The position numbers were made by a program, and so were the translations under genes. The notes beneath the pieces were generated by a model that saw nothing but the letters and a program-made list of their open reading frames with translations, was not told the origin of the DNA and did no database searches. A stretch of 64,000 nucleotides of DNA from an uncultured virus (IMG/VR IMGVR_UViG_3300032250_000289) (lineage: Duplodnaviria; Heunggongvirae; Uroviricota; Caudoviricetes), in the IMG/VR virus record IMGVR_UViG_3300032250_000289; one strand, written 5' to 3'. Shown here one piece after another: positions 4,935 to 63,163 of the stretch (the first letter of the stretch is position 1; each line of letters opens with the position of its first letter).

Positions 4935-5257
4935 TTTTTCAAAGACTGCTAAAGTTTTTCTTCACCAGTGACGATTATGGTGCTAGGTCATCACGTTGGC
5001 CTAAGATAAGGCAAGAACATTTAAATAATTATCCACATTGTGCAGCGTGTGGTAGAAATAAAAAACTTGAAGTTCACCACATAAAACCATTTCATTCTAA
5101 TCCAGACTTAGAATTAGATCCAAATAATTTGATTACATTATGTGACGATCCCTGTCATTTTTTGTTTGGTCACTTAATGAACTATAAGAGTTGGAACCCA
5201 AGTGTCATAAATGATTGTGAGATATATTATGATAAAATCAAAAATAGGCCACAATAA
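4931..5257 (+). CDS. HNH endonuclease
   Basis: CAACG..LEVHHIKPF..NLITLC..CHFLFGH. Confidence 0.85.
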   Translation: MIFQRLLKFFFTSDDYGARSSRWPKIRQEHLNNYPHCAACGRNKKLEVHHIKPFHSNPDLELDPNNLITLCDDPCHFLFGHLMNYKSWNPSVINDCEIYYDKIKNRPQ

Positions 5258-12952: not shown

Positions 12953-13285
12953 ATGAATATTAACACATGGCTAGGATGTGGACGATTAACAAAAGATGCT
13001 GAAATTGGTGTTACCCAAAAGGGTACTGCTATGGCAAAATTTCGCATGGCTGTTAATGATAGACGTAATGACGAGACATTGTTCCTTAATGTATTGTGTT
13101 TTGGCAAGATGGCTGAAGCATTAAAGGATCATCTCACAAGAGGCCGATTGGTTGGGGTTCAAGGAAAAATCAAGATAGATGACTATCAGGATAAGGAAGG
13201 TAACACAAGAAATTCTGTTTGCGTTATGGCAGATGAAATTTCTCTTGGACCGTCTGGAACTGTACAGCAGGATGTTAAAGAGTAA
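12953..13285 (+). CDS. ssb: single-stranded DNA-binding protein
   Basis: GRLTKDAE, FRMAVND, FGKMAE..RGRLVGVQGKI..YQDKEG. Confidence 0.9.
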   Translation: MNINTWLGCGRLTKDAEIGVTQKGTAMAKFRMAVNDRRNDETLFLNVLCFGKMAEALKDHLTRGRLVGVQGKIKIDDYQDKEGNTRNSVCVMADEISLGPSGTVQQDVKE

Positions 13286-36950: not shown

Positions 36951-37437
36951 TCAAGATTATCAGAAAGAATGGTCAGAAACACACAAGTATAAGCATATTC
37001 ACACGGGAGAATATTGCACTTTTGAAGCTTATGTTGCTGAATTTATAGTGTTGCGTAGATCAGAAAAGTTGAATTTAGGCAAGCCCTCCTATAAGTTCTG
37101 GACAAAGGGCGACCCACTACATTGGCTGTGGAAAAAGCAGCACGGTGCGGCACTTAAGCTCAAGAAGAAATACAGTGAGGAAGCTATACTATCGGCTATC
37201 AAATCAAAGGATTTTGATAGACTATTGGTTATCGCAATTCAAAACGGCAGAGGATATAAAATAAATCCAGAAGCTGAAAAAGTCATTGAGAAACATCAAA
37301 AAATTATTGACGAAGCAAATAATAAACCAACAGTGAATTTGGATGTAGAAGTTGAGAAAAAAGATCTTGAAACAAGGTCGAGCCAGAGCTATAATACACT
37401 AAAGAAGAAGTCTATCCGTAACTTGAGGAATCTATGA
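36916..37437 (+). CDS. hypothetical protein
   Basis: ATGA coupling to recA. Confidence 0.65.
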   Translation: MTTPNNKPELFNQDYQKEWSETHKYKHIHTGEYCTFEAYVAEFIVLRRSEKLNLGKPSYKFWTKGDPLHWLWKKQHGAALKLKKKYSEEAILSAIKSKDFDRLLVIAIQNGRGYKINPEAEKVIEKHQKIIDEANNKPTVNLDVEVEKKDLETRSSQSYNTLKKKSIRNLRNL

Positions 37438-38537
37438 GCAAGAAAAAGTTTAGTTCAAAATTTGCAGAGGATATGGTCAGTAATGACGTTATTAATAAAT
37501 ATGGCGACGTTGTAAGAAGTGGTACAGAAGTACTAGACAATATCAATACTTTGAAAGTTATTGGTATTTCTCCAGCACTTGATATCGCTCTAGGTGGTGG
37601 CCTAAGAGAGGGATCAGTCGTTGTTATGACGGGCGATCCCAAGAGTGGCAAAACAACAACCGCCTTACACTTCGCCGCCAAGTGTCAAAAAGACAACAGA
37701 AAAATTATCTACGTTAACACAGAAGGTAGACTATCTAAGCAGAATTTTGATGGCATCAAAGGACTTAATCCAGACACTATTCTTATTGTAGAATCCACCA
37801 ATGAGCGTGTATTATCAGCACAAGACTTCTTAAATATCATTGAGAAGTATATTAATAATGATTCTGGATCTTTAATTATTGTTGATTCATTATCAAACAT
37901 GGTTCCATCAGATGAGCTAGAGGGAGAAATTAGAACTGGCGTAAGAAATGCTTTGCCAAGATTGCTCTCAATGTTTTTTAAGAGGATTAGTGGAACACTA
38001 ATGAAGAACAAAGCAATCCTCATTTGCATTACTCATAATATTGCTAATAGCGGTGGATCTCCATACGCCCCAGCTAAGATGGCAGACTGTGGAAACATGG
38101 TACAGTATCAAGCTGGAACAAATATGGTTATTACGCATAGAGGTAAATGGCAAGTTCCAAAGGACACTGGCACTCACGTTGGTCAAATTGCGAACTGGTC
38201 AATCAAAACATCTAACGCTGGTGGTAGACCAAATAGTACAGCGGAAAGCTGGATTAAATATGGTATTGGTATTGATGAAGTGCAGGAAATTATTCATATT
38301 GCCTGTGAGTTAAGACTTATCAAAGCTGCCGGTGCTTGGTATACCATAGCCTGTGCCGTTGAGGACACCAACCACCCTACAATTAGTAAGTATCTCAAGG
38401 ATAATAATATTGGTAGCACACCAGAAGATATTGAAAGATGCTTTAAGTTTCAAGGAGTTAATGCTGTGGCAGAATTTCTAGATGCCAATAGTGCTATTAG
38501 CGATTTTATATATGCCAAGATCAAGGAACTTCAATGA
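37434..38537 (+). CDS. recA: RecA/UvsX-like recombinase
   Basis: SPALDIALGGG, GDPKSGKTT, IIVDSL, IKAAGAWY. Confidence 0.9.
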   Translation: MSKKKFSSKFAEDMVSNDVINKYGDVVRSGTEVLDNINTLKVIGISPALDIALGGGLREGSVVVMTGDPKSGKTTTALHFAAKCQKDNRKIIYVNTEGRLSKQNFDGIKGLNPDTILIVESTNERVLSAQDFLNIIEKYINNDSGSLIIVDSLSNMVPSDELEGEIRTGVRNALPRLLSMFFKRISGTLMKNKAILICITHNIANSGGSPYAPAKMADCGNMVQYQAGTNMVITHRGKWQVPKDTGTHVGQIANWSIKTSNAGGRPNSTAESWIKYGIGIDEVQEIIHIACELRLIKAAGAWYTIACAVEDTNHPTISKYLKDNNIGSTPEDIERCFKFQGVNAVAEFLDANSAISDFIYAKIKELQ

Positions 38538-38959
38538 AAGTTAGAGGAATCAATGGTAAGGAATATGTTTGGAACCTATCTTCCTATGATGTGTTTTATG
38601 ATGATGCTCGTAAGAGATCGAAATACCATCTTCGGGCTAGAAACTTGTTAAGAGAAATATTCAATAGCTATAGAATATTAGAAGAAGTTAAACTGCCGGG
38701 AAGCACTGCCTTAAACAGGAAGTCAGTTTTGTATATTGACTTCTACATTCCATCTATTAAGATGGGGTTTGAAGTTCATGGCGAACAACACTATAAGTAT
38801 AATCCATTTTTTCATAAGAGTCAGGCAGACTTCTTAAAGGCTAAAGCTAGAGATGAAGATAAAATTGAGTGGTGTGAAATAAACGATATAGATATCATAG
38901 TTCTTAAATATTCAGAAAGCGATGATGAGTGGCGAAAACAAATTACAAACTGCGTCTGA
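38534..38959 (+). CDS. Vsr/DUF559-like PD-(D/E)XK endonuclease
   Basis: IDFYIP..FEVHGEQHY..RDEDKIEWC. Confidence 0.75.
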   Translation: MKVRGINGKEYVWNLSSYDVFYDDARKRSKYHLRARNLLREIFNSYRILEEVKLPGSTALNRKSVLYIDFYIPSIKMGFEVHGEQHYKYNPFFHKSQADFLKAKARDEDKIEWCEINDIDIIVLKYSESDDEWRKQITNCV

Positions 38960-39404
38960 GAAATTAGCACATCACATTGGGCAGATAGATGATTATATCA
39001 ATCTTGTAAATGCTAAATTTTCTTCATTCAAAGAAGAGTATTTACTTGTGTCAAATATGTCACTTGAGGAATTGAACAATTTGACTCAACAGCAGTCCTT
39101 TGATTCAGCATATATGTTGTATAGCTATGCTTCATACATACAGGATGAGATAAATAAGAATAAAATTGTATTGAATTGGTGCAATGATCAGATAGAAAAA
39201 TTGGTTGTATCCAATAACAATTCATTTGACCAGTATACAAAGCACGAAGTAAAAAAGCAAACAATAATCAAAGATAATAGCTATGCCGCAAAGGTAGATC
39301 ATATGCGATCTATAGCAGAATCAAGACTGCAAGCCTTAGATGGTAAGGTGTTTGAACTAAAGCGAAAGGCCGATATTCTACTAGAGAGAGGGAAAAGACA
39401 ATGA
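38922..39404 (+). CDS. helical hypothetical protein (possible recombination mediator)
   Basis: Coiled-coil C-terminus; position near recA. Confidence 0.55.
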   Translation: MMSGENKLQTASEKLAHHIGQIDDYINLVNAKFSSFKEEYLLVSNMSLEELNNLTQQQSFDSAYMLYSYASYIQDEINKNKIVLNWCNDQIEKLVVSNNNSFDQYTKHEVKKQTIIKDNSYAAKVDHMRSIAESRLQALDGKVFELKRKADILLERGKRQ

Positions 39405-45425: not shown

Positions 45426-46314
45426 AAAGAATAAAGATGAAGACAAGACACAGTTCGTCGCTAGATGTATGGGCGACAGCGTAATGAAAAAGGACTATCC
45501 AAATAATAGTCAAAGAGTTGCCATCTGTTTAGATCAAGCAACAGCCGACTGTGATTGTGTAGAAGCTGCTGATTTTAAGATGCAGCTAGAATTGTATGGC
45601 TATGAAGAAGACATTGATGATGATAATTTTTACATTCCTACACAGGCAGAATATGAAGATTTTGGTGAAGAAACAGAAGAGTGGGATATTGCTCAAGCAA
45701 AGCCGGGACTATGGGACAATATAAGAAAGAAGAAAGATCGATTAGGCAAAAAATATAAACCAGCAAAGCCGGGAGATCCAGATCGCCCAGATAAAGATGC
45801 TTGGAAAAAAGCTCAGTCTGGTGATAGCGAAATGGCTATTGATCAGATAATGAAAATGCACGACCAGCTTATGGAGGTGGTTGCTAAAATGCAAACCATG
45901 CAAATACCGGTAGAATTTCAAGATTGGACGAAAGATATGATTTCCAAAGCTGAAATCTATGTCCAGAATGTGTACGACTTTGTTAAATATTATGAGCCGG
46001 GTAAATATGAAGATGAATATACAAAAGAAGTAGATGAATCATCAGAAATCGAAACTGAAGATTCTTATGCTTCAGAATATCAAGGCCGCAAAGTAACACT
46101 TAATAAACCATTTAGAACATCGAATGGTCCAAAGAAGTTCGCAGTATATGTTAAGAATGAAAGCGGTAATGTGGTGATCGTTAGATTTGGTGATCCAAAT
46201 ATGACAATAAAAAAGAATATTCCAGAACGACGAAAGAGCTTTAGGGCTAGACATAATTGTGATAATCCCGGTCCAAAGTGGAAGGCTAGATATTGGGCTT
46301 GCAAAAGCTGGTAG
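45412..46314 (+). CDS. multi-module phage protein (acidic centre, basic conserved C-domain)
   Basis: MPIPK..FVARCM..QRVAIC; PGLWDNIRKK; VRFGDPNMTIK..RRKSFRARHNC..KARYWAC. Confidence 0.7.
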   Translation: MPIPKKNKDEDKTQFVARCMGDSVMKKDYPNNSQRVAICLDQATADCDCVEAADFKMQLELYGYEEDIDDDNFYIPTQAEYEDFGEETEEWDIAQAKPGLWDNIRKKKDRLGKKYKPAKPGDPDRPDKDAWKKAQSGDSEMAIDQIMKMHDQLMEVVAKMQTMQIPVEFQDWTKDMISKAEIYVQNVYDFVKYYEPGKYEDEYTKEVDESSEIETEDSYASEYQGRKVTLNKPFRTSNGPKKFAVYVKNESGNVVIVRFGDPNMTIKKNIPERRKSFRARHNCDNPGPKWKARYWACKSW

Positions 46315-46389
46315 TTGAAGTAAAGTTGTTGATTCGGCGGTATAATAGTTTGATAGCGTAAGCATACACGTTGCAGCATAGGAGATTAT

Positions 46390-48009
46390 ATGTTTGGTTG
46401 GTTCCCTTTGAATAACTATACCCACTACAGTTTATTGCGTGGGTTTTCCAAGCCAGATGAATTGGCTGAAAAGTGTAAAGCTAATGGGTATATAGCTTGT
46501 GGTCTTTGCGATTATAAGACTATCTCTGGTGCTATATCCTTTTTTAAAGCCTGTAAGAAGGTTGGGATTAAGCCAATTATTGGTTGCTCCTTTGGTAGTT
46601 TTAAGCTATTTGCTAAAAACAAAGATGGGTGGCACGATCTAATCGAACTTGTATCCTCATTTAACGAGGATGCTGAATTGCCTAATGGTCTTCTGGATAA
46701 AATTATATCTAGAAACAACGTCATAAAAGTAATGAGCAATATTCATGATGAGCTTAGAGATAGCTATTATACAAACAAAGAAGACGCAAAATTGCATCGT
46801 ATTCTTTTATGTTCGGAAATGAAAACAACTCTACCAAAAATACACAAAGCGATTAAAAAGGATAAGAATGGTAGTGTAAATGTTCAGTCATCTTTTCCAC
46901 AAGAACATCATGACAAATTGAACTATTTTATGTTCGATCATTTTTATGTATTTGATAAAGAGGAGTCTAAAGATTTTGATACATCCTCATTAGAATCAAT
47001 ATATAATCAGTGCGAAGATTATGATATACTTAATAAACCAATTCTACCAAAGTTTAAGTGCCCAGATGGTAAGTCAGAAGAGGATTATTTAAAGGAGCTT
47101 TGTCGTATTGGGTGGAAGAAGTTGCTCATCGATGGAGATAAGGTTTCCAAACAGGAAGATAAGGACAAGTACCTAGAAAGATTTAAAGAAGAATTTGACG
47201 TAATTAAGAATGCTAACTTGTTCGGGTACTTCCTAATCGTCCAAGATATTATACAGTATGTTGAAAGTCAGGGATGGCTTGCTGGTCCCGGTAGAGGTTC
47301 AGCCGCCGGATGCTTGATATCATATTTGATTGGGATTACAAAGATTGACCCAATAGAGTTTGATTTGCTTTTTGCTAGATTTTATAACGCTGGTAGAAAT
47401 AGTGCTGACCACATTTCTTTACCAGATATTGACATGGACGTTCCCGGCAATAAGCGTGATGAGGTTATTGAGTATTTAAAAAACAGGTATGGACACGAAC
47501 ATGTTAGCCAAATGATTACGTTTGGTAGGTTGCGTGGTAGGAGTGCAATTAAAGAGGTTCTAAGAATTAACGAGGCGTGTTCTTTTGCTGAGATGAATGC
47601 TATCACTAAGAGTATCCCCAACGAGGCTGAAATTTCTGACCAGTTAGCAGATATGGATGATGAAGAAAGATCAATTATTAAGTGGGCATTAATCAACAAT
47701 GCTAATGAACTAAGAGACTTCTGCTATATTGGAGAAACTGGAAAGCTTGAAGGAACATATGCCGAATACTTTGAGCAAGCTATTAACATTGAGGGTACAT
47801 TTAAAACTCAGGGTAAACACGCTGCTGGTGTTGTCATATCAGCAGCACCGCTAAAAATGGTTTGTCCAATGGTTAAGCAGAGGGATTCATCAGAAAAAAT
47901 TGCTGGATTAGAAATGTCAGACTTAGAAGCATTAGGACATGTGAAATTTGATATTTTAGGAATTACGCTCTTGGATAAATTGATGTATATCCAGAAAATG
48001 TGTGTATAG
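46390..48009 (+). CDS. dnaE: DNA polymerase III alpha, N-terminal half (PHP + palm)
   Basis: YSLL..KPIIG, GPGRGSAAG, LPDIDMD, HAAGVVI, VKFDILG; stops soon after KFDILG. Confidence 0.92.
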   Translation: MFGWFPLNNYTHYSLLRGFSKPDELAEKCKANGYIACGLCDYKTISGAISFFKACKKVGIKPIIGCSFGSFKLFAKNKDGWHDLIELVSSFNEDAELPNGLLDKIISRNNVIKVMSNIHDELRDSYYTNKEDAKLHRILLCSEMKTTLPKIHKAIKKDKNGSVNVQSSFPQEHHDKLNYFMFDHFYVFDKEESKDFDTSSLESIYNQCEDYDILNKPILPKFKCPDGKSEEDYLKELCRIGWKKLLIDGDKVSKQEDKDKYLERFKEEFDVIKNANLFGYFLIVQDIIQYVESQGWLAGPGRGSAAGCLISYLIGITKIDPIEFDLLFARFYNAGRNSADHISLPDIDMDVPGNKRDEVIEYLKNRYGHEHVSQMITFGRLRGRSAIKEVLRINEACSFAEMNAITKSIPNEAEISDQLADMDDEERSIIKWALINNANELRDFCYIGETGKLEGTYAEYFEQAINIEGTFKTQGKHAAGVVISAAPLKMVCPMVKQRDSSEKIAGLEMSDLEALGHVKFDILGITLLDKLMYIQKMCV

Positions 48010-48015
48010 TATTAC
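48002..48015 (+). promoter_or_regulatory. putative phage late promoter (GTGTAT core)
   Basis: GTGTATAGTATTAC overlapping the dnaE-N stop, 44 nt before the HNH gene. Confidence 0.5.
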
Positions 48016-48045
48016 GTCAAACTTTACACTCACTGGAGATTACCT

Positions 48046-48729
48046 ATGATTACTCATGAAAAATTAAAGAAAATGCTTCATTTAGAAAATAAGAGCCAAA
48101 GAGAAATATCACAAGAGCTGGGCGTTAGTGAGGCTTGTGTTTCAAAATATGCTAAAAAATATGGATTAAGAAAGAAACCAGAAGAGAGATATATTGGTAA
48201 AAGATTTGGAATACTAACCGGCAGGAAGATTATTGGTCAGGACGATTATTCTCATAACATGGTTGAATGCGTGTGCGATTGTGGAAACGTCATTGTTGTT
48301 GTGTGCCACTCTTTAACTAGCGATAATACAAAAAGTTGCGGATGTGAATCAAGAAAGCGTGGAAAAGATCACGCAAACTATCGTGGATATGAAAATATCC
48401 AACAAAGTTATTGGAGCAGTATAATTAAAGGTGCCGATAAGAGAAATTTAGAAATGTCTATTTCAGTTCAATACGCTTGGAGTCTATATGAAAAGCAAGG
48501 TAAAAAATGCGCCGTAACTGGAATACCAATATTTTTTCCACAAACAAGAAAAACTGCAAATAAATCGACAGCATCACTAGATAGAATAGATAATACGAAG
48601 GGGTATATTGAAGGAAACGTACAGTGGGTTCATAAGAAAATTAACCAAATAAAAATGGATCTAACTGTTGAAGATTTTTTTGAATTATGTAAAAACGTTG
48701 TTAATTACAATAACTTATTGGAGGATTGA
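48046..48729 (+). CDS. HNH-type homing endonuclease with N-terminal HTH
   Basis: SQREISQELGVS; CVCDCGN..TKSCGC; SLDRIDNTKGYIEGNVQWVHKKIN. Confidence 0.85.
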   Translation: MITHEKLKKMLHLENKSQREISQELGVSEACVSKYAKKYGLRKKPEERYIGKRFGILTGRKIIGQDDYSHNMVECVCDCGNVIVVVCHSLTSDNTKSCGCESRKRGKDHANYRGYENIQQSYWSSIIKGADKRNLEMSISVQYAWSLYEKQGKKCAVTGIPIFFPQTRKTANKSTASLDRIDNTKGYIEGNVQWVHKKINQIKMDLTVEDFFELCKNVVNYNNLLED

Positions 48730-49409
48730 TGGCTAATAGAGATTTCATCATATTTGACTTTGAAACTGGATCACGTAATCCACATAAAACTCAACCTACG
48801 CAGCTAGCAGCTTTAGCATTAGACGGTAGAAGTCTAGCGGTTAAGGGTCAGTTTAATAGCGAGATTAAGCCTATACTTGATGATGAAAAAGCTATCGCCG
48901 CTGGTGTTGATCCTCTACAAGATGAGGCTTTAAAAGTAACAGGCAAGACTAGAGAAGCTTTAGAACAAGCACCATCGCTAAAATCAGTATGGTCCAAGTT
49001 CACAAAGTTCGTAGATCAGTATAATTGGAAGGGTGAACCATTCTTTGCCCCTATTCCAGTTGGATTTAATATCATTGGATTCGACCTTATTATTATCAAT
49101 AGACTGTGCAAGGAATTTGGACCTTGGGATCACGAAAGAGAACAGCAGAAATTATTTAGCAAGGTTTATAAGATAGACATTATGGACAATGTATTTACTT
49201 GGACCGAAAGCGACCCTAGCGTTAAATCAATCAGCATGGATTCTCTAAGAGACAGGATGGGCCTAAGTAAAGAAAACGCTCACGATGCCCTACAGGACGT
49301 TAAGGATGAAGCAAACATCTTTATCAAGCTAATGAAAACGCACCGGTCTGTGTATCAGAACATTACTTTTGACAAAGCATTTGCTAACGGTAATCTATAT
49401 GTTAAGTAA
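48729..49409 (+). CDS. dnaQ: DEDDh 3'-5' exonuclease (DnaQ/epsilon-like)
   Basis: FDFETG, GFNIIGFD, NAHDALQDV. Confidence 0.85.
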   Translation: MANRDFIIFDFETGSRNPHKTQPTQLAALALDGRSLAVKGQFNSEIKPILDDEKAIAAGVDPLQDEALKVTGKTREALEQAPSLKSVWSKFTKFVDQYNWKGEPFFAPIPVGFNIIGFDLIIINRLCKEFGPWDHEREQQKLFSKVYKIDIMDNVFTWTESDPSVKSISMDSLRDRMGLSKENAHDALQDVKDEANIFIKLMKTHRSVYQNITFDKAFANGNLYVK

Positions 49410-49779
49410 AAAATGCAGTAAGTGTAAACAAGAATTACCTCTTACTGATTTTAGAAGAAGGGGTGGAGAAAAGTATCTAAGATCAGAATGTAAAGACTGT
49501 AATAATCAACTAAAAAGAGATAGATCAGAATTGAAAAAGCAGCACGGCAAACCACCAGAAAATTATACTTGTCCAATATGTGAGAGAAATGAAGTTGAGT
49601 GTGCCGGTGAAGGAAATAAAATCGCTTCGTCTTGGGTATTAGACCATTGCCATATCACAAAAAAATTCAGAGGGTGGCTATGTCACAAATGTAATAGGGG
49701 CTTGGGAGCTTTTGGGGATAATAAGAATAAAATTGTAAATGCATTGAACTATTTATTGTCGAGAGAAAATAATGATTGA
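49399..49779 (+). CDS. endonuclease VII-family nuclease
   Basis: CPIC..LDHCH..FRGWLCHKCNRGLG. Confidence 0.85.
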   Translation: MLSKKCSKCKQELPLTDFRRRGGEKYLRSECKDCNNQLKRDRSELKKQHGKPPENYTCPICERNEVECAGEGNKIASSWVLDHCHITKKFRGWLCHKCNRGLGAFGDNKNKIVNALNYLLSRENND

Positions 49780-51334
49780 TTATAATGATAAAAAAACATG
49801 GCAGCTATTCGCAGAAGGAAAGACCAAAGGTATCTTTCAATTAGAAAGTAATCTTGGTAAAGCTTGGGCTAAGAAGGTTGCTCCAACTAATATTGAAGAA
49901 TTATCCGCTCTTATCGCCATTATTAGGCCGGGAACACTAAAAGCTTTCGTTGATGGAAAGTCTATGACCCAACACTATGTGGATAGAAAACATGGTAGAG
50001 AAGAAGTCGTATATCTGCATGAGTCTATAGAAGAAATCTTAAAGCCAACTTATGGGGTATTGGTTTATCAAGAGCAGTCTATGCGTATAGCTCAAAAGGT
50101 AGCTGGGTTCAATCTACAAGAGGCTGACGTTCTACGTAAGGCCATTGGTAAGAAAAATGCTGCCCTCATGAATGAAGTTAAGAAGTCCTTTATTGAGGGT
50201 TCCCAAAAAGTAAAACTTGTCTCACAGGAAGAAGCTGAACAGATATTCGGATGGATTGAGAAGTCATCTAGGTATGCCTTTAATAAGTCTCACAGCGTGT
50301 CATACGCCGTGTGTTCTTATTGGAGTGCATACTTTAAGGCCCACCATACAAAAGAATTCTTTGAGGCTTATCTATATTATGCCAATGAGAAGCAAGACCC
50401 ACATCAGGAAATCTATGAGCTAATATCAGAAGCTAAACTATTTGACATTCAAGCTAGAACGCCAAGCATTTCACACTATGATGTAAAATTTAATTTTCAC
50501 AATGGCAAGATATACTTTGGTATCAAAGATATTAAGTCTTTAACCGGTAAAACTGGTGATAAGGTTGTGGATGCCATCAAAGAGGTAGAATCTGAACTTG
50601 GCAAGAAGATGACCAAATTTACTTGGTTAGAGATTCTTTTGTTCTTTGGGTCAAAGGTTAGCTCAACAGCTTTTAAAGCCCTAGCATCTGTGGGATTTTT
50701 TAGGGGATTTTTAGAAACTGTACAGAGAAATAAGGCTTTATACGACTATGATATATTTAGAACTTTGACGGCGGCTGAACAGAACTGGATTAAAGAGCGT
50801 TATAAAGATAAGCAGTGGAAGACTTTCGTTGACTGTCTTAGGGACTTGGCACCAACCAAAAAAGAGGGCGGTGGTACTAGCAAGATTGATCGAAAGCAAG
50901 CTATTGAAAATGAGATTCAACTATTAGTTAATCCACCGTATGATCTTACAGATGAAGCAAACTGGTTAATTGATCAAGAAACCAAATTCTTGGGGTGTCC
51001 AGTAACATTGACTAAAATAGAAACATCTGATAATTCTGCTGCAAATACTACATGCAAAGATATTATAAATGGTAAGAAGGGCAAAGACTTGTGCATCGTC
51101 GCCAACATACAAAGACTAGCTGATTACAAAATTAATAAGGGTGAGTCTAAGGGGCAAATGATGTCCTTTCTTACAATTGAAGATGACTCATGTGTTTTAG
51201 ATAGTGTGGTTGTATTTCCAAAAGTTAGAGAGAAATACAAGTATATATTATATGAGGGTAATAATTTAATTTTCTGCGGTTCAGTTGCCGAACATGATTC
51301 ATCATTGATCGTCAATCAAATCCACGAAATTTAG
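49772..51334 (+). CDS. dnaE: DNA polymerase III alpha, C-terminal half (fingers/HhH/OB)
   Basis: GKTKGIFQLES, AIIRPG, TYGVLVYQEQ, ADVLRKAIGKK, YAFNKSHS, MSFLTIED. Confidence 0.92.
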   Translation: MIDYNDKKTWQLFAEGKTKGIFQLESNLGKAWAKKVAPTNIEELSALIAIIRPGTLKAFVDGKSMTQHYVDRKHGREEVVYLHESIEEILKPTYGVLVYQEQSMRIAQKVAGFNLQEADVLRKAIGKKNAALMNEVKKSFIEGSQKVKLVSQEEAEQIFGWIEKSSRYAFNKSHSVSYAVCSYWSAYFKAHHTKEFFEAYLYYANEKQDPHQEIYELISEAKLFDIQARTPSISHYDVKFNFHNGKIYFGIKDIKSLTGKTGDKVVDAIKEVESELGKKMTKFTWLEILLFFGSKVSSTAFKALASVGFFRGFLETVQRNKALYDYDIFRTLTAAEQNWIKERYKDKQWKTFVDCLRDLAPTKKEGGGTSKIDRKQAIENEIQLLVNPPYDLTDEANWLIDQETKFLGCPVTLTKIETSDNSAANTTCKDIINGKKGKDLCIVANIQRLADYKINKGESKGQMMSFLTIEDDSCVLDSVVVFPKVREKYKYILYEGNNLIFCGSVAEHDSSLIVNQIHEI

Positions 51335-51388
51335 TGTGTTTTTGGGTTTTGTTATTGCTAATATACTAAGATAGGAGACTGATTGATT

Positions 51389-51700
51389 ATGAATATGTGT
51401 TCTTTTACGGGTTACTTGGTAGAAAATCCTCTTATTTCTACTATCAATGGAGTGACCCTTGCTGAATTTATGATGGTAGTTTATACTTATAGACGAACTA
51501 AGAGTGGCGAGAAGAATAGAATACCTACATATCTACATTGTGAAGCTTGGCATACTGGTGCTGAAACACTAGAAAAGTATGCTACCAAAGGCACAAAGAT
51601 TACTGTAAACGCTTCTGCAAAAAACCTATCCAGAGAAGACAACAGTATTGTATTTAGAATTAACGAATTTGATCTTTGTAATCAAGACTTTGAGGATTAA
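51389..51700 (+). CDS. second SSB-like OB-fold protein
   Basis: FTGYLVENP, CEAWHTGAE..KGTKITV; acidic tail. Confidence 0.7.
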   Translation: MNMCSFTGYLVENPLISTINGVTLAEFMMVVYTYRRTKSGEKNRIPTYLHCEAWHTGAETLEKYATKGTKITVNASAKNLSREDNSIVFRINEFDLCNQDFED

Positions 51701-51702
51701 AA

Positions 51703-53358
51703 ATGAGAAAAAAGAGAATTCTTTTCTGTAGCGAAGCAACGTTTTTAAATACTGGATATGCTACATATACTAGAGAAATTTTAAATTATCTGTATAGTAC
51801 TGGCAAGTATGAAATAGCTGAGATGGCTTCATACGGTGAAAGAAATGACCCAAGGGCACAGTCAATTCCTTGGAAGTTTTATGGAGTTATGCCAAATCAG
51901 AATGCTTCTCAAGAAGAGAAAAATCAATACGGTTCTTCTGCTACTAATCAGTTTGGTGAGTTTATATTTGAATCCGTGTGTTTAGATTTTAAACCAGATG
52001 TGGTTTGTGATATTAGAGATTTCTGGATGTTGGATTTTGCTGAACGTTCACCATTCCGTCCATTTTTTAAATGGTGCATTATGCCAACAGTTGATGCTAG
52101 ACCTCAAGCTAGACAATGGGTAGCAACATATGAATCAGCGGATGCTTGTTTAACATATTCAAATTGGGCTGGAGAAGTATTAAAAGAACAGTCTGGTAAC
52201 AAGATTAAGTATTTGGGAAGCTCTCCACCATCAGCACATCCAGCCTACCAACCAATGGATAGATTGGCACTGAGAAATGAGTATGGTATTAATCCTAATG
52301 CCAAAATCATTGGGACAGTTATGAGAAATCAGAGACGTAAATTATATCCAGATTTATTTGAAGCTTTTAAGATTCTACTAGAAACAGTAGAAGATAGCTC
52401 AGATTATTTGCTATACTGTCACACTAGTTATCCAGACTTAGGCTGGGATATACCAGAACTATTACAGCAGTACCAGTTATCATCTAAGGTATTGTTTACG
52501 TATATTTGCGCCCAAACTGGCAGGCCGTTCCCATCATTATTTAAAGGTGCCGTAGCTCAGTCTCCTTTTACTGGTCAGTATGGTGCTACATTATCTAATG
52601 TAAAGAATGGTGTTGGATATGAAGATTTAGCTAAAGTAATAAACCTATTTGATATCTATGTTCAATACGCTAATTGCGAGGGTTTTGGTTTACCACAAGT
52701 TGAAGCTGCCGCTTGTGCTGTTCCAGTAATGGGAACTGACTATTCTGCTATGGAAAGCGTTTTAAGAGAACTTGGTGGGTATCCAATTAAACCGAAAGCT
52801 CTATATAAAGAACTAGAAACTGGATGCTTTAGGGCGGTTCCAGATAATCATTTAGCGGCATCAAAGTTAATTGAATTTTTCTCGTTATCACCCAGTGAAA
52901 GACGGTCAATGGGATTAAGAACTAGAGAAGCTTTCTTAGAGCATTTTCAGTGGGATAAGAGTGGTAAGGTTTGGGAAGATTATTTCGATAGCGTGGAAAT
53001 TCTACCAGAAGAATTGACATGGAGATCACCCCCAAGAATTAGACAGCCAAAAGCTAAACCGGAAAAACTACCAGAACATTCAAGACATGAGAACTTGGCT
53101 AAATGGCTAATTAATGATGTTTTGTGTGAACCTGAGAAGCTTAACTCTTTTATGGAAGCTAGATTAGTACGTGACTTGATATATAAGAGTTCCACAGCAG
53201 TTACTGGCGGTATGTACTTTAATGAAAGTGCCGCCATATTTGACGGTTCTCAAACAAGGACTCCTTTTAGTTTTGATATAGCGTATGATCATATGGCTTC
53301 ATTATGCAATAGAAGAAACATGTGGGAGCAGAGAAGAAAGGAATTATACAAACTGTGA
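51703..53358 (+). CDS. GT4 glycosyltransferase
   Basis: NTGYATY, VMRNQRRK, EGFGLPQVEAAACAVP. Confidence 0.88.
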   Translation: MRKKRILFCSEATFLNTGYATYTREILNYLYSTGKYEIAEMASYGERNDPRAQSIPWKFYGVMPNQNASQEEKNQYGSSATNQFGEFIFESVCLDFKPDVVCDIRDFWMLDFAERSPFRPFFKWCIMPTVDARPQARQWVATYESADACLTYSNWAGEVLKEQSGNKIKYLGSSPPSAHPAYQPMDRLALRNEYGINPNAKIIGTVMRNQRRKLYPDLFEAFKILLETVEDSSDYLLYCHTSYPDLGWDIPELLQQYQLSSKVLFTYICAQTGRPFPSLFKGAVAQSPFTGQYGATLSNVKNGVGYEDLAKVINLFDIYVQYANCEGFGLPQVEAAACAVPVMGTDYSAMESVLRELGGYPIKPKALYKELETGCFRAVPDNHLAASKLIEFFSLSPSERRSMGLRTREAFLEHFQWDKSGKVWEDYFDSVEILPEELTWRSPPRIRQPKAKPEKLPEHSRHENLAKWLINDVLCEPEKLNSFMEARLVRDLIYKSSTAVTGGMYFNESAAIFDGSQTRTPFSFDIAYDHMASLCNRRNMWEQRRKELYKL

Positions 53359-54041
53359 AAATATTAGCTATTACAAATTTTGATGAAAGATTTACATCTA
53401 TAAAAAATGTCGTTGAACCAAACAATAAAAAATATTTTAAGAAATATAACATAGATTATGTGGGATTTTGTGGTGATTTTGACTCATTAGTAACCATAGA
53501 ATCAGATGAGCCCATTGTGATTGGTAATGAAAAAAATTATTGGACCAAAATGATACTAATGCAATCTGCTTTGAGTTCGCCAGACGATCATGATTGGATA
53601 TTTATGCTTGATGCTGATTGTTTAATCGTGGATCATTCTGTTGACTATTTAAGAACTATAATCAAAATGTCAAAGCCAGACAAAGAATTTTTACTATGCA
53701 ACATAGACGATCCATTAACAAATTACTGGAATATAAATAATGGCGTATTTTTTGTAAAGAAAACTGAACGAATGAAAAAGCTATTTACAAAGTTGGTTGA
53801 TTTTGCGTTTGGTAAAAAATTTACAATAGATGACCAAAGTATCGTACAGTATTTGCTTAGAGAAAATATTGATGAAATTCGTAAAATTACGGATATTTTC
53901 CCAAGTCACGCATTTAATCATGGTGGAAATTTTATTTTCCATGCTTGTGGAGTTAATAGTCATCACGGTGATTTTAAACAGGCTTTACTTGAAAAAGAAG
54001 AAACACTAAAATCTAAATTAAGTGAGATTACAACAACATGA
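53355..54041 (+). CDS. GT-A glycosyltransferase (GT34-like)
   Basis: YWTK, WIFMLDADCL, INNGVFF, DDQ; probable GTG start overlapping upstream TGA. Confidence 0.72.
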   Translation: MKILAITNFDERFTSIKNVVEPNNKKYFKKYNIDYVGFCGDFDSLVTIESDEPIVIGNEKNYWTKMILMQSALSSPDDHDWIFMLDADCLIVDHSVDYLRTIIKMSKPDKEFLLCNIDDPLTNYWNINNGVFFVKKTERMKKLFTKLVDFAFGKKFTIDDQSIVQYLLRENIDEIRKITDIFPSHAFNHGGNFIFHACGVNSHHGDFKQALLEKEETLKSKLSEITTT

Positions 54042-55162
54042 AAGTTTTATACATCGGTCATTACAAAGAGGGAACTGGTTGGTCGCAAGCGGCTATAGAC
54101 TTAATTATGTCTATGCACTTAGTTGGTATAGATGTAGTTTGTAGAAATATTAAACTAACAGATCATAAGGCGAATATTAATCCAATATTAATGAGGCTAG
54201 AAAACAAGCCATTAGAGGATATAGACGTTTGCATTCAGCACGTACTACCACACCATATGGTTGGAACAAAGAAATTCAAAAAAAATATAGCTTACTTTGT
54301 GGGTGAAACAAATAGTACCCTATTTACAAACTGGCACGTTATGCTAAAACAGATGGATGAAGTGTGGGTGCCAAATAAAACCCTACAAAATGGGCTAATA
54401 AAAGATGGGATTAATACCGTTAAGGTTATTCCACACGCATTCAATCTTTATAGGTATGGTCGGGAGCATAACAAATTTAATTTCCAAGATAATAATGGCA
54501 AGTTTAAATTTTACTTTATTGGCGATTTAAATGATAGAAAAAATATAGAGTCGATTATACGTTCTTTTCATTCTGAATTTGCATCACACGAACAGGTAGC
54601 CTTAGTTCTTAAGCTGAAAAAGTTTGGCTCCAATGAAAATGAACTAGTTAAATACGTATCGAATTTATGTTCATCTATTAAGAAAGATCTAAGACTGTAT
54701 AAAGATGTGGGCGATTATCATAAGGAAATAATTATTACATCTGAATTTAATGACGAGCAAATAAACTCACTCCATTGTTCATGTGACTGCTTTGTTGGTC
54801 CAACTCATGGTGAAGGTTGGTCTATACCAGCTTTTGATGCTATGTGCTTTGGTAAAACCCCTATTTGTAGTAATGAGGGTGGCCCAAAAGAATTTATTGA
54901 TCCAGATGATAAAGGAACGGGATATTTAATTAACGGGGTTTATGGCGTGTGTAATCACTCTGACCCAGCATTTCCAGAGCTATTTACTGGAAGAGAAGAA
55001 TGGTTTATTCCTAGCGAATCAGAAATGAAGAAAGCTATGAGATTCTATTTTGAAAATAGAACTATTGATAAATCTAGTGGCTTAAAAAGGGCTGAACAAT
55101 TTTCACATGAATCTGTTGGAAATCTCATAAAGGAATCATTAGATGATAAACAATTCTGTTAA
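54038..55162 (+). CDS. GT4 glycosyltransferase
   Basis: DEVWVP, DRKNI, HGEGWSIPAFDAMCFGK. Confidence 0.85.
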   Translation: MKVLYIGHYKEGTGWSQAAIDLIMSMHLVGIDVVCRNIKLTDHKANINPILMRLENKPLEDIDVCIQHVLPHHMVGTKKFKKNIAYFVGETNSTLFTNWHVMLKQMDEVWVPNKTLQNGLIKDGINTVKVIPHAFNLYRYGREHNKFNFQDNNGKFKFYFIGDLNDRKNIESIIRSFHSEFASHEQVALVLKLKKFGSNENELVKYVSNLCSSIKKDLRLYKDVGDYHKEIIITSEFNDEQINSLHCSCDCFVGPTHGEGWSIPAFDAMCFGKTPICSNEGGPKEFIDPDDKGTGYLINGVYGVCNHSDPAFPELFTGREEWFIPSESEMKKAMRFYFENRTIDKSSGLKRAEQFSHESVGNLIKESLDDKQFC

Positions 55163-56144
55163 AAGAATACTACATGTGGCTAATAGGGCTAAACCAGAGA
55201 AGTATAATATCCTTACTTTTCCAACGCACGAAAGATATGAAAGTCAGCTAGCAAAAACTGGTCACAACTTTTACTCATTCCACCTACCAAATTTAAAGAA
55301 GTGGAATAAGGATCAGATTAAGCCACCAGAGAATTATTATATTCTACCAGAATCTCAAGCGTGTGAATATATACATTATGACTTTGTGTTATCGCAGAGT
55401 AAGTTCTGGCAATTTCAAGTTGCTCAACAGATGAGTCCGATGCTAAATATTCCAATTATTTCTCTAGAACACACCCTACCAACCCCACAGACATTAAATC
55501 CAGAACAGGTTAATATGATGCGTGGAATGGTGGGAGATATCAATATATTCATTTCAGAATATTCTCAAAAAACATGGGGAATAAACTATAATACAGAAAT
55601 TATACATCATGGTATAGATAGTGATACATTTAAGCCAATTGAAGAAGTTAATAAAGAAGATCATATTTTAACTGTTGCTAATGATTTTATTAATAGAGAT
55701 TACTGCTTAAATTTTAGTGGCTGGAAAAGAGTAACTGATGGATTGCCAGTTAAGCTAGTCGGTGACACAAAAGGATTGTCAGTATCAGCATCGTCTACAG
55801 AAGAACTGGTAAATGACTATAATCAATGCTCCGTTTATTTTAATAGTTCAACCATTAGTCCAATACCAACATCATTATTAGAAGCAATGTCGTGTGGATG
55901 TGCTATAGTTTCTACAGCAACCTGCATGATTCCAGAAATCATTCAAAATGGAGTTAATGGATTTATTTCTAATGATGAGAATGAACTAAGAAAATATATA
56001 ACAATGATTATGGAAGATAGGGGCTTAAGAGAATCCTTGGGTAGTGAAGCTAGAAAAACAATACTAGAAAAGTTTTCTCAAGAAAAATTTATTTCAAAAT
56101 GGAACAATATTTTTGACCAAGCATACGAGGTTTCAATCAAATGA
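55143..56144 (+). CDS. GT4 glycosyltransferase
   Basis: IHHGID, PTSLLEAMSCGCAIV, IIQNGVNG. Confidence 0.85.
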   Translation: MINNSVKRILHVANRAKPEKYNILTFPTHERYESQLAKTGHNFYSFHLPNLKKWNKDQIKPPENYYILPESQACEYIHYDFVLSQSKFWQFQVAQQMSPMLNIPIISLEHTLPTPQTLNPEQVNMMRGMVGDINIFISEYSQKTWGINYNTEIIHHGIDSDTFKPIEEVNKEDHILTVANDFINRDYCLNFSGWKRVTDGLPVKLVGDTKGLSVSASSTEELVNDYNQCSVYFNSSTISPIPTSLLEAMSCGCAIVSTATCMIPEIIQNGVNGFISNDENELRKYITMIMEDRGLRESLGSEARKTILEKFSQEKFISKWNNIFDQAYEVSIK

Positions 56145-56566
56145 AGATTCATATAACAGAAAATGTAAACAGTGCAATTGAAGGTTTTGTTTTAGTTCCT
56201 ATCGTTTACGGTAGGCTTGATTTGGGTGGCGTTACGGATCACTCGGCAACTCAAATTGTAGCCCTCGACGCTATCGATAGCGTACCGATAGCAATGCTAA
56301 CAAAGTTTTTACAAGATGTTGTTAGTAAAATGAGGTTTGGATGTGTTGCAATATTTGGTGGTGTAGAGCTTGACGTTTTATCTAGGGCAGTTATCACCAA
56401 TGATATAAATGTGGAATCGTTCAATAAATTAGTATTTAGCAAAAAAGCCATATATAAGAATTCCGACATTACCAAAATTTTAACAGGCTTGGGACTATCA
56501 ATTGATAAGGTATTAATTCAAGGAATAAACTATGAAATCACAGCAACAAGAAAAAACCCAAACTAG
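56141..56566 (+). CDS. hypothetical protein (degenerate methyltransferase-like fold possible)
   Basis: Coupled ORF in glycosylation cluster; weak pattern only. Confidence 0.5.
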   Translation: MKIHITENVNSAIEGFVLVPIVYGRLDLGGVTDHSATQIVALDAIDSVPIAMLTKFLQDVVSKMRFGCVAIFGGVELDVLSRAVITNDINVESFNKLVFSKKAIYKNSDITKILTGLGLSIDKVLIQGINYEITATRKNPN

Positions 56567-57257
56567 TTGTAAAGATTGTTTATTTGCAATTTATGATGGG
56601 AAAACACAGACTTCGTGTGCGGCCAATAGAATACAGCTTTTTGGCGATAATGTAATTGAAGCATTTGATGACGATAAAGAATTCTATGTTATTAATCGTT
56701 TTTGTAACTACTATAGAACAAAGGAGTGGAATGGTGGAGACGTTGATTTTAAGAAATTAAAACAAGAAACCGATATTCCATTTGATTTATTTATTGATGC
56801 AAAGAACATATCTTCTAGTGAATTAATACAATTATTATTCAACTTGAAGTATGATCAAGAAAAGATCAAAATATCACTTTTCTATCATATAGATCAGACT
56901 GTTGATATAGCTGAAATTCAAGAATTAATTAAGTTGACAAACTGTAGTGTAACGGCATGTGTCGATATTAATACTCATTTACACAATTCGGTTATACGGT
57001 CAAAAAATAATTACCATGCAGTATTGACCAATGATAGAAAATCTTGCATTTCTAATATAGACACTATAAATACTTTGATAAATAATGATTTAAAACAGGC
57101 TATTATCTTTAAGCTTGACGGCGTAGAATTTATATCAAATATAGCTTATAAACTTGAATCATTAATTAATAACTCAATATCCTATTGTGATAATTTAACC
57201 AGTTTGGAACAAAAATCACGACAAGAAAATATGTATATAGAAATTGGAAATGATTAA
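56532..57257 (+). CDS. hypothetical protein with Cys motif
   Basis: TSCKDCLFA..C..RFC. Confidence 0.6.
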   Translation: MKSQQQEKTQTSCKDCLFAIYDGKTQTSCAANRIQLFGDNVIEAFDDDKEFYVINRFCNYYRTKEWNGGDVDFKKLKQETDIPFDLFIDAKNISSSELIQLLFNLKYDQEKIKISLFYHIDQTVDIAEIQELIKLTNCSVTACVDINTHLHNSVIRSKNNYHAVLTNDRKSCISNIDTINTLINNDLKQAIIFKLDGVEFISNIAYKLESLINNSISYCDNLTSLEQKSRQENMYIEIGND

Positions 57258-57990
57258 TACTCAAAAATGTATAACATCACCAAAAGCTAAAAAGGATTAT
57301 AAACCACGCAATGACTTGGTGACTATAATATTGCTTTGCGACTGTCCCGGCTATAGAATGAAATCATACGGGCCACCATCTTTAATAAACATAGCAAATC
57401 ATAGGCTTATAGATATTCAGATAGATGCCATCAGTAAAACTTTTAAATATTATGAGATTATTTTATGCGTTGGGTTTGATGCTGAAAAAATATCAAAATA
57501 TGTAAGAAATAAGTACAATAATATTAATATTCGAATAGTCGAGAATCAGCTATACAATAGTTCTAATTCGTGTGAGAGCGCAAGGCTAGCACTAAATAAT
57601 ACTATAAATGATCAAATTTTGATCTGTGATGGAAACTTGCTAATAAACTCAGAAACGCTATCATTGGTTAACGATGAATATTCCACAGTAATTTTAGAAA
57701 GCAACCCGTGTTCTAATTTAGAGGTTGGGGTTAATGTGGATGAAAAAAATGAAGCACAGCATTTTTCTTTTGGTGCTAGTAATATATGGTCAGAAATTTT
57801 ATACTTAAATAATCAAGAAATCATTGAGTCTTTAAGAAGGATTATGTGTGGGGCAGATTATAAAAGTAGATTTATTTTCGAGGCATTGAACGAACTAATT
57901 AAAACCAAACACAAGTTAAAGTGCGTGAAAAACGAACACAGTATTAAAAAGATAAATAACGTAAAAACATACCATGCAATTACGAGGTAA
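57250..57990 (+). CDS. sugar-nucleotidyltransferase-like (LicC/MobA fold) protein
   Basis: PGYRMKSYGPPSL, ILCVGF, ENQLYNSSN, ICDGNL. Confidence 0.72.
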   Translation: MINTQKCITSPKAKKDYKPRNDLVTIILLCDCPGYRMKSYGPPSLINIANHRLIDIQIDAISKTFKYYEIILCVGFDAEKISKYVRNKYNNINIRIVENQLYNSSNSCESARLALNNTINDQILICDGNLLINSETLSLVNDEYSTVILESNPCSNLEVGVNVDEKNEAQHFSFGASNIWSEILYLNNQEIIESLRRIMCGADYKSRFIFEALNELIKTKHKLKCVKNEHSIKKINNVKTYHAITR

Positions 57991-61947: not shown

Positions 61948-62439
61948 ATGAACTTAGGAATATATGTTGATACTGTTGTTGATAATGAATTATTAGGACC
62001 AATATCCTTAATGCTAAACGAGGGATTGCAATCAAAAACATTATCAGATGCTAGTATTTTTTATGATGGAATAGGACACAATCCATACCCAGTAGTTTGT
62101 GGAATGTTTAATTCAACCGATATATGGAATTTTGATGGAAACTTAATAGCCACATCGTATACTACTTCTGAAAAAGCTCTTAATATAGTGAATAATTTTT
62201 CATTGTTTTATTATTACGGGTGGGAAAATTTTAAGAATACAATGGGCTTACTAAGGCTAGCTAATGATGATAGAGTCAGTATAGTGTGTAGAAGCGAACA
62301 AGATCATAAAGAACTATACAGGTTAACTGGAAAAAACAGCGTTGGTATTAGTGACAATTTTAACGATATATTAGACATTATTTCTAGGTGTAAAAATGGA
62401 CGATGCAAAAATAGTCGAAATGTATGTAGACAAGAATAA
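61948..62439 (+). CDS. hypothetical protein
   Basis: Coupled ORF at the end of the glycosylation cluster. Confidence 0.6.
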   Translation: MNLGIYVDTVVDNELLGPISLMLNEGLQSKTLSDASIFYDGIGHNPYPVVCGMFNSTDIWNFDGNLIATSYTTSEKALNIVNNFSLFYYYGWENFKNTMGLLRLANDDRVSIVCRSEQDHKELYRLTGKNSVGISDNFNDILDIISRCKNGRCKNSRNVCRQE

Positions 62440-63163
62440 AAGCACTTACGAGATTGCTGAATTCTGTCAAACATATCCGAATAAAATTAGACGTATTCTA
62501 TTAAAGAATAACGTTAATCTAAAAACTAAAAGCGAAGCTCAAAAGAACGCTATAGAGAGTGGGGCTTCTATACATCCAACTAGTGGAAAAACAAGAACTA
62601 AAGAAGAGAAACTAAAAATTAGTTCTGGTCTTAAAAAATATTGGGACGATATGAGCGATGAGTTATATGAGAACAGAATTAATCAGTCTAAAGATCGTTG
62701 GAAGAATATGTCGGATGTTGAGAAGAGCAACATGATGAGTGCTGCAATTAAAGCTATACAAATAGCTGGCAAAGAAGGGTCTAAGCTAGAGAAGTTTCTG
62801 AAAAATGAATTAAGTGTTGCTGGCTATTCTGTCGAAGCTCATAAAAAGGATTTGATCGCAAACCAAAATCTAGAGATCGATATGTACATTCCAGCGCTCA
62901 AGACTATCATAGAGATAGACGGTCCTTCACACTTTTTGCCGATTTGGGGTGAAGACAAACTACAAAAACAAATTAAATCTGATTTTCAAAAGAGTGGTCT
63001 AATATTAAATAAGGGAATGGTTATCATTAGAATCAAGAATATGTCTGATTCTGTATGTTTAGCAAGCCAAGAAAAATTGAGGCTTGACATTTTGAATCTT
63101 TTGAGTAGAATTGAAAAAGCGTTCCCCGGTAAAACAGAAAGGTATATTGAGATAGAAGTATGA
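62396..63163 (+). CDS. NUMOD3/HTH-containing Vsr-like homing endonuclease
   Basis: STYEIAE HTH; GKTRTKEEKLKIS (NUMOD3); SKLE..IDMYIP..IEIDGPSH. Confidence 0.75.
   Translation: MDDAKIVEMYVDKNKSTYEIAEFCQTYPNKIRRILLKNNVNLKTKSEAQKNAIESGASIHPTSGKTRTKEEKLKISSGLKKYWDDMSDELYENRINQSKDRWKNMSDVEKSNMMSAAIKAIQIAGKEGSKLEKFLKNELSVAGYSVEAHKKDLIANQNLEIDMYIPALKTIIEIDGPSHFLPIWGEDKLQKQIKSDFQKSGLILNKGMVIIRIKNMSDSVCLASQEKLRLDILNLLSRIEKAFPGKTERYIEIEV

Follow-up and report, generated by a model that had tools for sequence, protein, structure and literature searches.

A phage replicase gene divided in two

The IMG/VR record IMGVR_UViG_3300032250_000289, a 64,000-nucleotide stretch of DNA from an uncultured virus of the Caudoviricetes (hereafter the window), belongs to the large genome of an uncultivated phage. 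Between positions 46390 and 51334 it carries five open reading frames (ORFs) tightly packed on the + strand, followed by a gene for a single-stranded DNA-binding protein (SSB; Table 1). The first and the last of the five encode the two halves of a bacterial-type DNA polymerase III alpha subunit (DnaE), referred to here as the N half and the C half, and the 1,762 nt separating them (48010-49771) contain ORFs for an HNH-type nuclease, a DEDDh exonuclease and an EndoVII-type nuclease. The N half ends at a stop codon of its own (48007-48009), and three other genes precede the ORF for the fingers domain. The start codon (ATG) of the exonuclease gene overlaps the stop codon of the HNH gene by 1 nt, and the start of the C half overlaps the stop codon of the EndoVII-type gene by 8 nt. 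A preliminary description of this locus, made from the sequence alone, had already placed a divided dnaE gene at these coordinates, with a gap of about 1.76 kb holding the three genes; profile searches bore this out, since the halves match different Pfam domains and consecutive stretches of one DnaE profile, and PHROG or Pfam recognises all three intervening genes.

The N half matches the PHP domain (PF02811, 63 bits; cut-off 26.4) and the palm of Pol III alpha (PF07733, 235.4 bits; cut-off 23.9), while the C half matches the fingers (PF17657, 163.3 bits; cut-off 22). Against the whole-protein model TIGR00594 of NCBIfam the halves score 339 and 273 bits, respectively, each below the cut-off of 434, as is expected because each ORF represents half a protein. 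Alignment of the OB region of the C half to its E. coli counterpart was not significant; the intact relatives introduced below carry PF14579 and PF01336 in precomputed domain lists. Residues D346, D348 and D521 of the N half correspond to D401, D403 and D555 of E. coli alpha, which we take to be the catalytic aspartates of the palm, and they are invariant in 32 sequences. In the C half, R122, K123, G126, K127, K128, F170, N171, S173 and H174 are invariant in 28 sequences; they belong to the fingers motifs LRKAIGKK (aligned with E. coli R709/R710) and FNKSH, which presumably bind the nucleotide. The predicted active site is hence divided between the two halves, with the catalytic aspartates in one and the fingers motifs in the other.

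Table 1. Features of the split dnaE locus (positions in the 64,000-nt window)
Feature	Position	Strand	Family match
dnaE N half, 539 aa; PHP, palm, thumb	46390..48009	+	PF02811, PF07733
Spacer, 36 nt; GGAG about 8 nt upstream of the HNH ATG; 5' edge of the HNH cassette	48010..48045	+	
HNH-type homing endonuclease gene, free-standing, 227 aa, N-terminal helix-turn-helix; putative selfish insert, junction 1	48046..48729	+	
DEDDh (DnaQ-fold) 3'-5' exonuclease gene, 226 aa; presumed proofreader	48729..49409	+	PF00929
EndoVII-type nuclease gene, 126 aa; putative selfish insert, junction 2	49399..49779	+	PF02945, phrog_2633
dnaE C half, 520 aa; fingers, helix-hairpin-helix-like region, C-terminal part	49772..51334	+	PF17657
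SSB gene	51383..51700	+	PF00436 (38.6 bits)

The break lies between palm and fingers

The two halves match positions 244-610 and 626-1059 of the phage DnaE profile phrog_405. Alignment to the E. coli alpha subunit likewise gave consecutive segments, residues 9-564 for the N half (the alignment ending at residue 530 of its 539) and residues 590-851 for the C half (from its residue 3 onwards), and places the break at about residues 573-588, in the palm-to-fingers loop. The N half terminates 15 residues past its KFDILG motif, one more than had been counted originally. An intact relative of the polymerase (P0001) reads through the junction, and only about two of its linker residues are unrepresented in the two ends encoded by the window; there is therefore no space for intein pieces. 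In an AlphaFold2 model of P0001, computed from a 26-sequence alignment with a predicted local distance difference test score (pLDDT) of 88.7, the break falls in a nine-residue loop (534-542) between helices 521-533 and 543-550; the former follows the KFDILG strand, and the latter is the first helix of the fingers.

None of the five ORFs matched an intein-type Pfam family at E ≤ 0.01, and no Rfam family was found in the region 45500-52000, on either strand, at E ≤ 1. Because of the latter result, and because the gap is filled by ORFs, we regard an intron or ribozyme core as absent. Residues 7-172 of the C half match positions 619-778 of the model for the N-terminal piece of cyanobacterial DnaE (PRK09532), and the cyanobacterial split-intein site lies about 170 residues further downstream than the break described here. 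The statements of the preliminary description that the C half resumes after a short linker, that the junctions are free of inteins and that no group I intron core is present in the gap thus hold.

Both halves and the exonuclease are maintained by selection

In the comparison of the window with its relative L009, the proportions of non-synonymous and synonymous differences (pN/pS) were 0.129/0.734 for the N half, 0.091/0.738 for the exonuclease and 0.118/0.760 for the C half. Across the relatives, pN of these three genes ranged from 0.08 to 0.19 with synonymous sites that were saturated (pS 0.70-0.90), values that point to strong purifying selection on all three. One row, the N half compared with L001, was not used; it combined an amino acid identity of 0.909 with a pN of 0.352, which is inconsistent and was taken as a script or alignment artefact.

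No second DNA polymerase was detected among the 83 ORFs of the window. The contigs of four relatives, one of them rated 100% complete (173,842 bp) and the other three 74-77% complete, each yielded a single PF07733 match and no match to PolA or PolB. An intact polymerase elsewhere, which would have spoken against the reading of the halves as functional proteins, was accordingly not found in either set.

The PHP domain of the N half looks degenerate: its first motif (residues 7-16; window 46390-46450) reads NNYTHYS in the clade of the window and HCHSMYS in a distant clade (L121:4167-4230). The metal site of this domain may therefore be degenerate in the former and intact in the latter, and its degeneracy could be related to a reliance on an exonuclease that is a separate protein.

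The exonuclease is a constant member of the polymerase module

The exonuclease matches PF00929 with 49.7 bits (cut-off 24), and its DEDDh residues D10, E12, D119, H185 and D190 are invariant in an alignment of 35 sequences, from which one row (L139) was excluded. The protein also has a conserved C-terminal tail. Its AlphaFold2 model (pLDDT 92.5) adopts a DnaQ-type fold, and the best Foldseek match was a DnaQ domain (8h2f; E = 2e-11, TM-scores 0.64/0.82); the DinG exonuclease domain, CRN-4 and ExoI were also among the top matches, with RNase T ranking lower. Two DNA polymerase chains of 1,100-1,200 residues (9qpc, 9qrn) were found among the lower matches, and the polC-type exonuclease domain of Thermotoga (2p1j) was present in the list as well. 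Scores against curated epsilon models were 26.5 bits for TIGR01406 (cut-off 222.7), 26.2 bits for PRK06310 (cut-off 236) and 24 bits for PRK05711 (cut-off 196), and PolC models gave 23-36 bits with cut-offs of at least 873. The term proofreader therefore rests on fold, motifs and position. The earlier designation of the protein as epsilon-like is retained at the level of the superfamily, with regard to the DnaQ fold and the DEDDh motifs, and is dropped in the narrower sense, since no curated epsilon model was reached.

To place the module among its relatives, the proteins of the window were mapped onto two scans of IMG/VR, which gave 151 loci; 144 of these hold both halves, corresponding to 108 distinct sequences, and seven are cut by contig ends. 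The order N half, exonuclease, C half was present in 144 of the 144 loci, usually with the SSB gene next; a downstream SSB match was seen in most related loci long enough to show one. The exonuclease, which the preliminary description had treated as one of three intervening genes, is thus a constant member of the polymerase module.

Conservation of the split layout

Further scans raised the total to 201 split and three intact genes among 204 loci, to which a later scan added 27 split and six intact ones (the last two figures being a table count; the tallies were not de-duplicated across scans). DnaE is not one continuous polypeptide in the window, nor in 201 of the 204 mapped loci. The survey of relatives located the split at the same linker in every split locus, and three separate genes are kept even in a clade that is only about 40% identical (L121). 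When 1.84 billion cluster representatives were searched with the N half, five of the best 150 matches ran well past the break, and the remainder of these 150 were either fragments or ended within about 30 residues of it.

The DNA intervening between the halves measures from 683 nt to about 6 kb across the loci. In 20 of the 108 distinct loci both junctions are 150 nt or shorter and the gene is still split; in one of them (L060) the three genes overlap by 11 nt. At the other extreme, contig G005 has about 6 kb of metabolic genes after the N half, ahead of the exonuclease and the C half, with the order of the three unchanged. This insert, the largest junction cargo seen (L218/G005:C1, about 51300-57400), carries genes for a glyoxalase-fold protein, an aldehyde dehydrogenase, a DDAH-like protein, a class III aminotransferase and a UDP-glucose dehydrogenase.

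In the split clades more distant from the window, a small conserved ORF on the + strand is present in junction 1 without exception; the clade of the window has no such ORF. These ORFs form two unrelated families, one of about 57-63 amino acids (L113-L151, L213, L217; e.g., L141:6012-6203) and one of about 72-87 amino acids (L154-L209, L045-L047; e.g., L158:7551-7790), and they may encode a fourth subunit. Extra insertions of about 0.4-1.3 kb also occur inside the halves of relatives at recurrent points, near query residue 303/304 of the N half (L099, L100, L101, L117, L128, L224) and near residue 172 of the C part (L186, L189, L207, L208, L210). Since several long homologues (e.g., P0010, P0011) list PF14890, these are probably inteins at other sites.

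Among deposited phages, a megablast search with the 4.9-kb region gave no match, and tblastn returned only relatives below 60% identity (those listed were 25-36% identical), none of them with the N half-exonuclease-C half layout. Two candidates were inspected and set aside: in Cellulophaga phage phi13:1 the polymerase is split elsewhere, into adjacent genes, and in Alicyclobacillus phage MMB025 it is split within the fingers by an endonuclease gene.

The two nuclease genes are sporadic inserts

The HNH ORF was recognised through PHROG (phrog_3322, 7.6e-24; phrog_374, 9.3e-23); Pfam gave no nuclease match, only weak helix-turn-helix matches. Homologues of it occupy junction 1 in eight of the 108 distinct loci. 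In comparison with L009, its pS of 0.386 is well below the 0.70-0.76 of the flanking genes (N half, exonuclease, C half and SSB), and for this reason the data fit a recent arrival by lateral movement. The cassette of about 720 nt, located between the stop codon of the N half and the ATG of the exonuclease, has clean boundaries relative to the related loci; in those that have no HNH gene these two codons are 1-30 nt apart.

The EndoVII-type ORF matches PF02945 (46.6 bits) and phrog_2633 (1e-24) and has homologues in junction 2 of 28 of the 108 distinct loci. Its cassette comprises about 365 nt between the stop codon of the exonuclease and the GATTAT codons that open the C half; in L009, L018 and L092, which have no such cassette, the GATTAT codons of the C half follow almost directly after the exonuclease stop codon. 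The gene is 57% identical to the copy in L002, and the flanking genes are 80-88% identical. Mechanical ORF calling begins it at a TTG (49369), and it appears to start at an ATG inside the last codons of the exonuclease gene; in L009 the ATG at this place is in frame with the C half.

The cargo found at the junctions of the relatives is very mixed. Sixty-one ORFs were classified as EndoVII (19), HNH_3 (2) and NaeI-like (1) proteins, methyltransferases (8), glycosyltransferases (4), a formyltransferase, two DUF6165 proteins, a SLOG protein and a helix-turn-helix protein, and 22 had no family. From this mixed and sporadic content it follows that the junctions behave as ordinary intergenic landing sites. 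Together with the 20 insert-free loci that are nevertheless split, this indicates that the HNH and EndoVII-type genes are sporadic, later and probably selfish insertions, and not the makers of the split in the lineage of the window. The proposal that homing nucleases had created the split here, as in nrdA of phage Aeh1, is therefore not upheld.

The genome of the window is rich in free-standing nuclease genes. Two further HNH-type or homing-endonuclease-like ORFs lie at 4931-5257 and 62396-63163, and a UvsX/RecA-like gene (37434-38537) is followed directly by a homing-endonuclease-like ORF (38534-38959; phrog_9084) and then by a 160-amino-acid ORF without a family (38922-39404); the region 37434-39404 may represent another case in which a mobile nuclease gene interrupts or flanks a gene. 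As to the other neighbours of the module, the window has two SSB genes, a strong match at 12953-13285 (phrog_44, 8e-32) and the weaker one next to the C half (51383-51700; 3e-10), the latter without an obvious long C-terminal tail. Directly 3' of the module, positions 51703-56144 hold a run of glycosyltransferase-like genes (phrog_2170), and transferase genes similar to these are also found as junction cargo in relatives.

One-piece relatives and the interchange of layouts

Intact DnaE proteins related to the two halves comprise 1,052-1,152 amino acids at 39-56% identity, some of them with inteins at other sites (PF14890). In all nine one-piece loci examined (L186, L189, L211, L219-L224) the exonuclease gene is positioned immediately upstream of dnaE, with HNH-type genes between the two in L211; it is therefore the order of the exonuclease gene and the N-half segment that distinguishes the two layouts.

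We calculated a tree of the polymerase core (IQ-TREE quick search, LG+G4) from 38 split representatives, 35 intact rows and six bacterial outgroups; prior clustering of the split loci at 80% identity had brought the 192 aligned rows down to 79. Intact forms appeared in three separate clades, requiring at least three changes of layout. In approximately unbiased (AU) tests, grouping all split rows as one clade was rejected (p-AU 5e-9), as was grouping all intact rows (p-AU 2e-6); the groups were defined with knowledge of the tree, and the model contains no recombination. On this tree the split and one-piece layouts would have interchanged at least three times, in a direction that the tree cannot tell. 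The exonuclease tree was not in significant conflict with that of the polymerase (p-AU 0.13). In the free exonuclease tree the proteins of one-piece loci stand nearer to the clade of the window, and given that the polymerase-tree grouping is not rejected we make no claim of a separate transfer of the exonuclease.

A probable three-chain replicase and the alternatives to it

We consider it probable, at roughly three chances in four, that the split dnaE gene yields a non-covalent replicase of three chains, the N half, the exonuclease and the C half, and that the nuclease genes are later inserts. The sole DNA polymerase detectable would then be a bacterial-type Pol III alpha encoded by two genes and cut between palm and fingers. 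The three proteins would be made separately from tightly packed and often overlapping genes, presumably by co-transcription and translational coupling, and would most likely assemble into the replicase core without covalent joining. In such an enzyme the N half would contribute the PHP domain, the palm with its three catalytic aspartates and the thumb, the C half would contribute the fingers motifs, the helix-hairpin-helix region and the C-terminal part, and the exonuclease would proofread. The heterodimeric replicase of the preliminary description is thereby kept in so far as the two pieces are free of inteins and introns and both are under purifying selection; two chains are probably too few, the exonuclease being the likely third.

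Several observations weigh against this reading. The helix-hairpin-helix region of the C half reaches 22.2 bits with PF14579, which is under the Pfam cut-off of 25.6. The exonuclease remains under all curated cut-offs for epsilon and PolC-type exonucleases (best 31 bits against at least 189). Promoter-like sites (21, with 23.4 expected) and terminator-like sites (4, with 3.5 expected) were at chance level, which lends no positive support to a single operon. One-piece relatives at 39-56% identity show that the split is not obligatory for the polymerase family. Finally, the window covers 64 kb, the genomes of relatives measure 100-174 kb, and a second polymerase would be excluded by analogy with these relatives only.

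A different account addresses how the layout arose and does not conflict with a three-chain enzyme. It holds that homing-type double-strand-break repair, acting at a single site in the linker between palm and fingers, made the N half-exonuclease-C half arrangement and carried it from phage to phage: all DNA between the homology arms would be copied into a one-piece dnaE gene, the exonuclease gene would ride with a nuclease gene, and the old upstream exonuclease gene would be lost. The interchange of layouts on the polymerase tree, with its three intact clades and its two rejected groupings, is in line with this account, as are the constant position of the break, the upstream exonuclease gene in nine of nine one-piece loci and the HNH-type genes found there in L211. 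Nuclease genes are also frequent at both junctions, where they account for 22 of the 61 ORFs, and the HNH gene of the window seems to have moved recently. However, 20 of the 108 distinct loci are free of nuclease genes at both junctions, the exonuclease and polymerase trees, which do not conflict significantly, give no sign of a separate exchange of the exonuclease, and no intermediate with two exonuclease genes was present in any mapped locus; moreover, the impression of repeated switching could be produced by recombination within the polymerase genes, and the AU groups were chosen with the tree in view. We therefore regard a homing origin as unlikely, although it deserves to be kept in mind. 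More speculative still is an extended form of it, in which the exonuclease gene together with its two flanking nuclease landing sites would constitute the cargo of a homing cassette that repeatedly converts exonuclease-dnaE into N half-exonuclease-C half at one linker site, and back; the gene order would then be kept because it provides an ordered, stoichiometric and coupled synthesis of three chains. If this were true, an essential replisome subunit would have been captured by a selfish element, and the arrangement would be a natural gene-level counterpart of the internal exonuclease of PolC, at a different site.

Much less probable than a homing origin is a rejoining of the halves to a one-piece DnaE through an unrecognised intron, trans-splicing, an atypical intein or ribosomal bypass. 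The idea draws on the analogy with split-intein DnaE of cyanobacteria and with 'fractured genes', and our searches gave no support for it: neither intein nor Rfam families were matched at the thresholds given above, the roughly two residues unaccounted for relative to P0001 compare with 88-105 residues in the N parts of published split inteins (PMC2677866), the intervening DNA of 683 nt to about 6 kb is full of conserved protein-coding genes, and in the inspected loci the exonuclease is read in another frame. Equally improbable is the view that the pieces are remnants of a broken gene in a phage that uses the host replicase or a polymerase encoded outside the window, which covers only part of the genome; saturated synonymous sites with pN of 0.08-0.19, catalytic and fingers motifs invariant across 28-35 diverse relatives, a two-piece form kept down to about 40% identity and the lack of a match to another polymerase family in a relative rated 100% complete all argue against it.

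Comparison with known systems

The three-chain replicase proposed here resembles the Pol III core of E. coli (alpha, DnaE; epsilon, DnaQ; theta) in being a family-C enzyme with PHP, palm, thumb, fingers and helix-hairpin-helix regions and three catalytic aspartates that align. In both systems the DEDDh proofreader, a presumed one in the phage, is a separate protein and not a built-in domain. In E. coli, epsilon docks on the PHP domain of alpha. The phage system differs in that alpha consists of two polypeptides, cut at about residues 573-588, that the exonuclease gene is located inside the polymerase locus, and that its product reaches no curated epsilon model. In PolC of the Firmicutes, also a family-C polymerase, a DEDDh exonuclease is likewise encoded in the midst of the sequence for the polymerase. 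The exonuclease of PolC is part of the polymerase chain itself, as an insertion in its PHP domain, whereas that of the phage has a gene of its own, which comes after the palm.

Intein-less split genes are reportedly known from T4-related phages, namely gp43 (43A/43B) of Aeromonas phages and NrdA of Aeh1, where two non-covalent chains are said to be encoded by adjacent genes with a mobile nuclease at the break. Insertion of the nuclease is reportedly the cause of these splits, close relatives without it having a one-piece gene. In the system described here, by contrast, nuclease-free relatives stay split, a presumably functional exonuclease is encoded at the break, and the polymerase belongs to family C and not to family B.

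DnaE is encoded by two genes in cyanobacteria as well, whose split DnaE with a split intein was reportedly described by Wu, Hu and Liu in 1998. The cyanobacterial halves, as summarised in a later report, carry intein parts, are ligated by trans-splicing and are encoded at separate loci (PMC2677866); the phage halves have no intein, lie at one locus and are divided about 170 residues earlier. The same report defines 'fractured genes', which are broken by the halves of a split intein with a free-standing endonuclease gene between them, and lists three DnaE loci (Dassa et al., 2009; PMC2677866). These are, like ours, environmental phage-like loci with DnaE in two ORFs and free-standing nuclease genes in between, but they carry split inteins with all splicing motifs, of which none are present here, and the available text does not mention an exonuclease between the halves (PMC2677866). 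Their integration points are said to differ from one another, and the supplement gives intein sequences without positions, so that a coincidence with the break described here is possible (PMC2677866).

Meaning for phage replication

The layout is ordinary in the phage group to which the window belongs, yet apparently it has not been described. A full-text literature search, which included the accessible portions of PMC2677866, PMC4889955, PMC3919608 and PMC7412058 and did not extend to subscription-only papers, found no account of a DnaE that is split without an intein and has an exonuclease gene between its halves. Annotation pipelines that do not recognise the three-gene module will call its genes fragments or pseudogenes.

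Family-C polymerases are the replicases of bacteria, and the only well-known natural split of such an enzyme, that of the cyanobacteria, is repaired by an intein. A very large and diverse group of phages that keeps the enzyme cut between palm and fingers without a means to rejoin it would imply that two chains can form the active site together. It would offer a natural system in which to study the communication between palm and fingers, the recruitment of the proofreader and the possibility that gene order enforces assembly, and the switching between exonuclease-dnaE and N half-exonuclease-C half at one site would make gene fission and fusion tractable in an essential enzyme.

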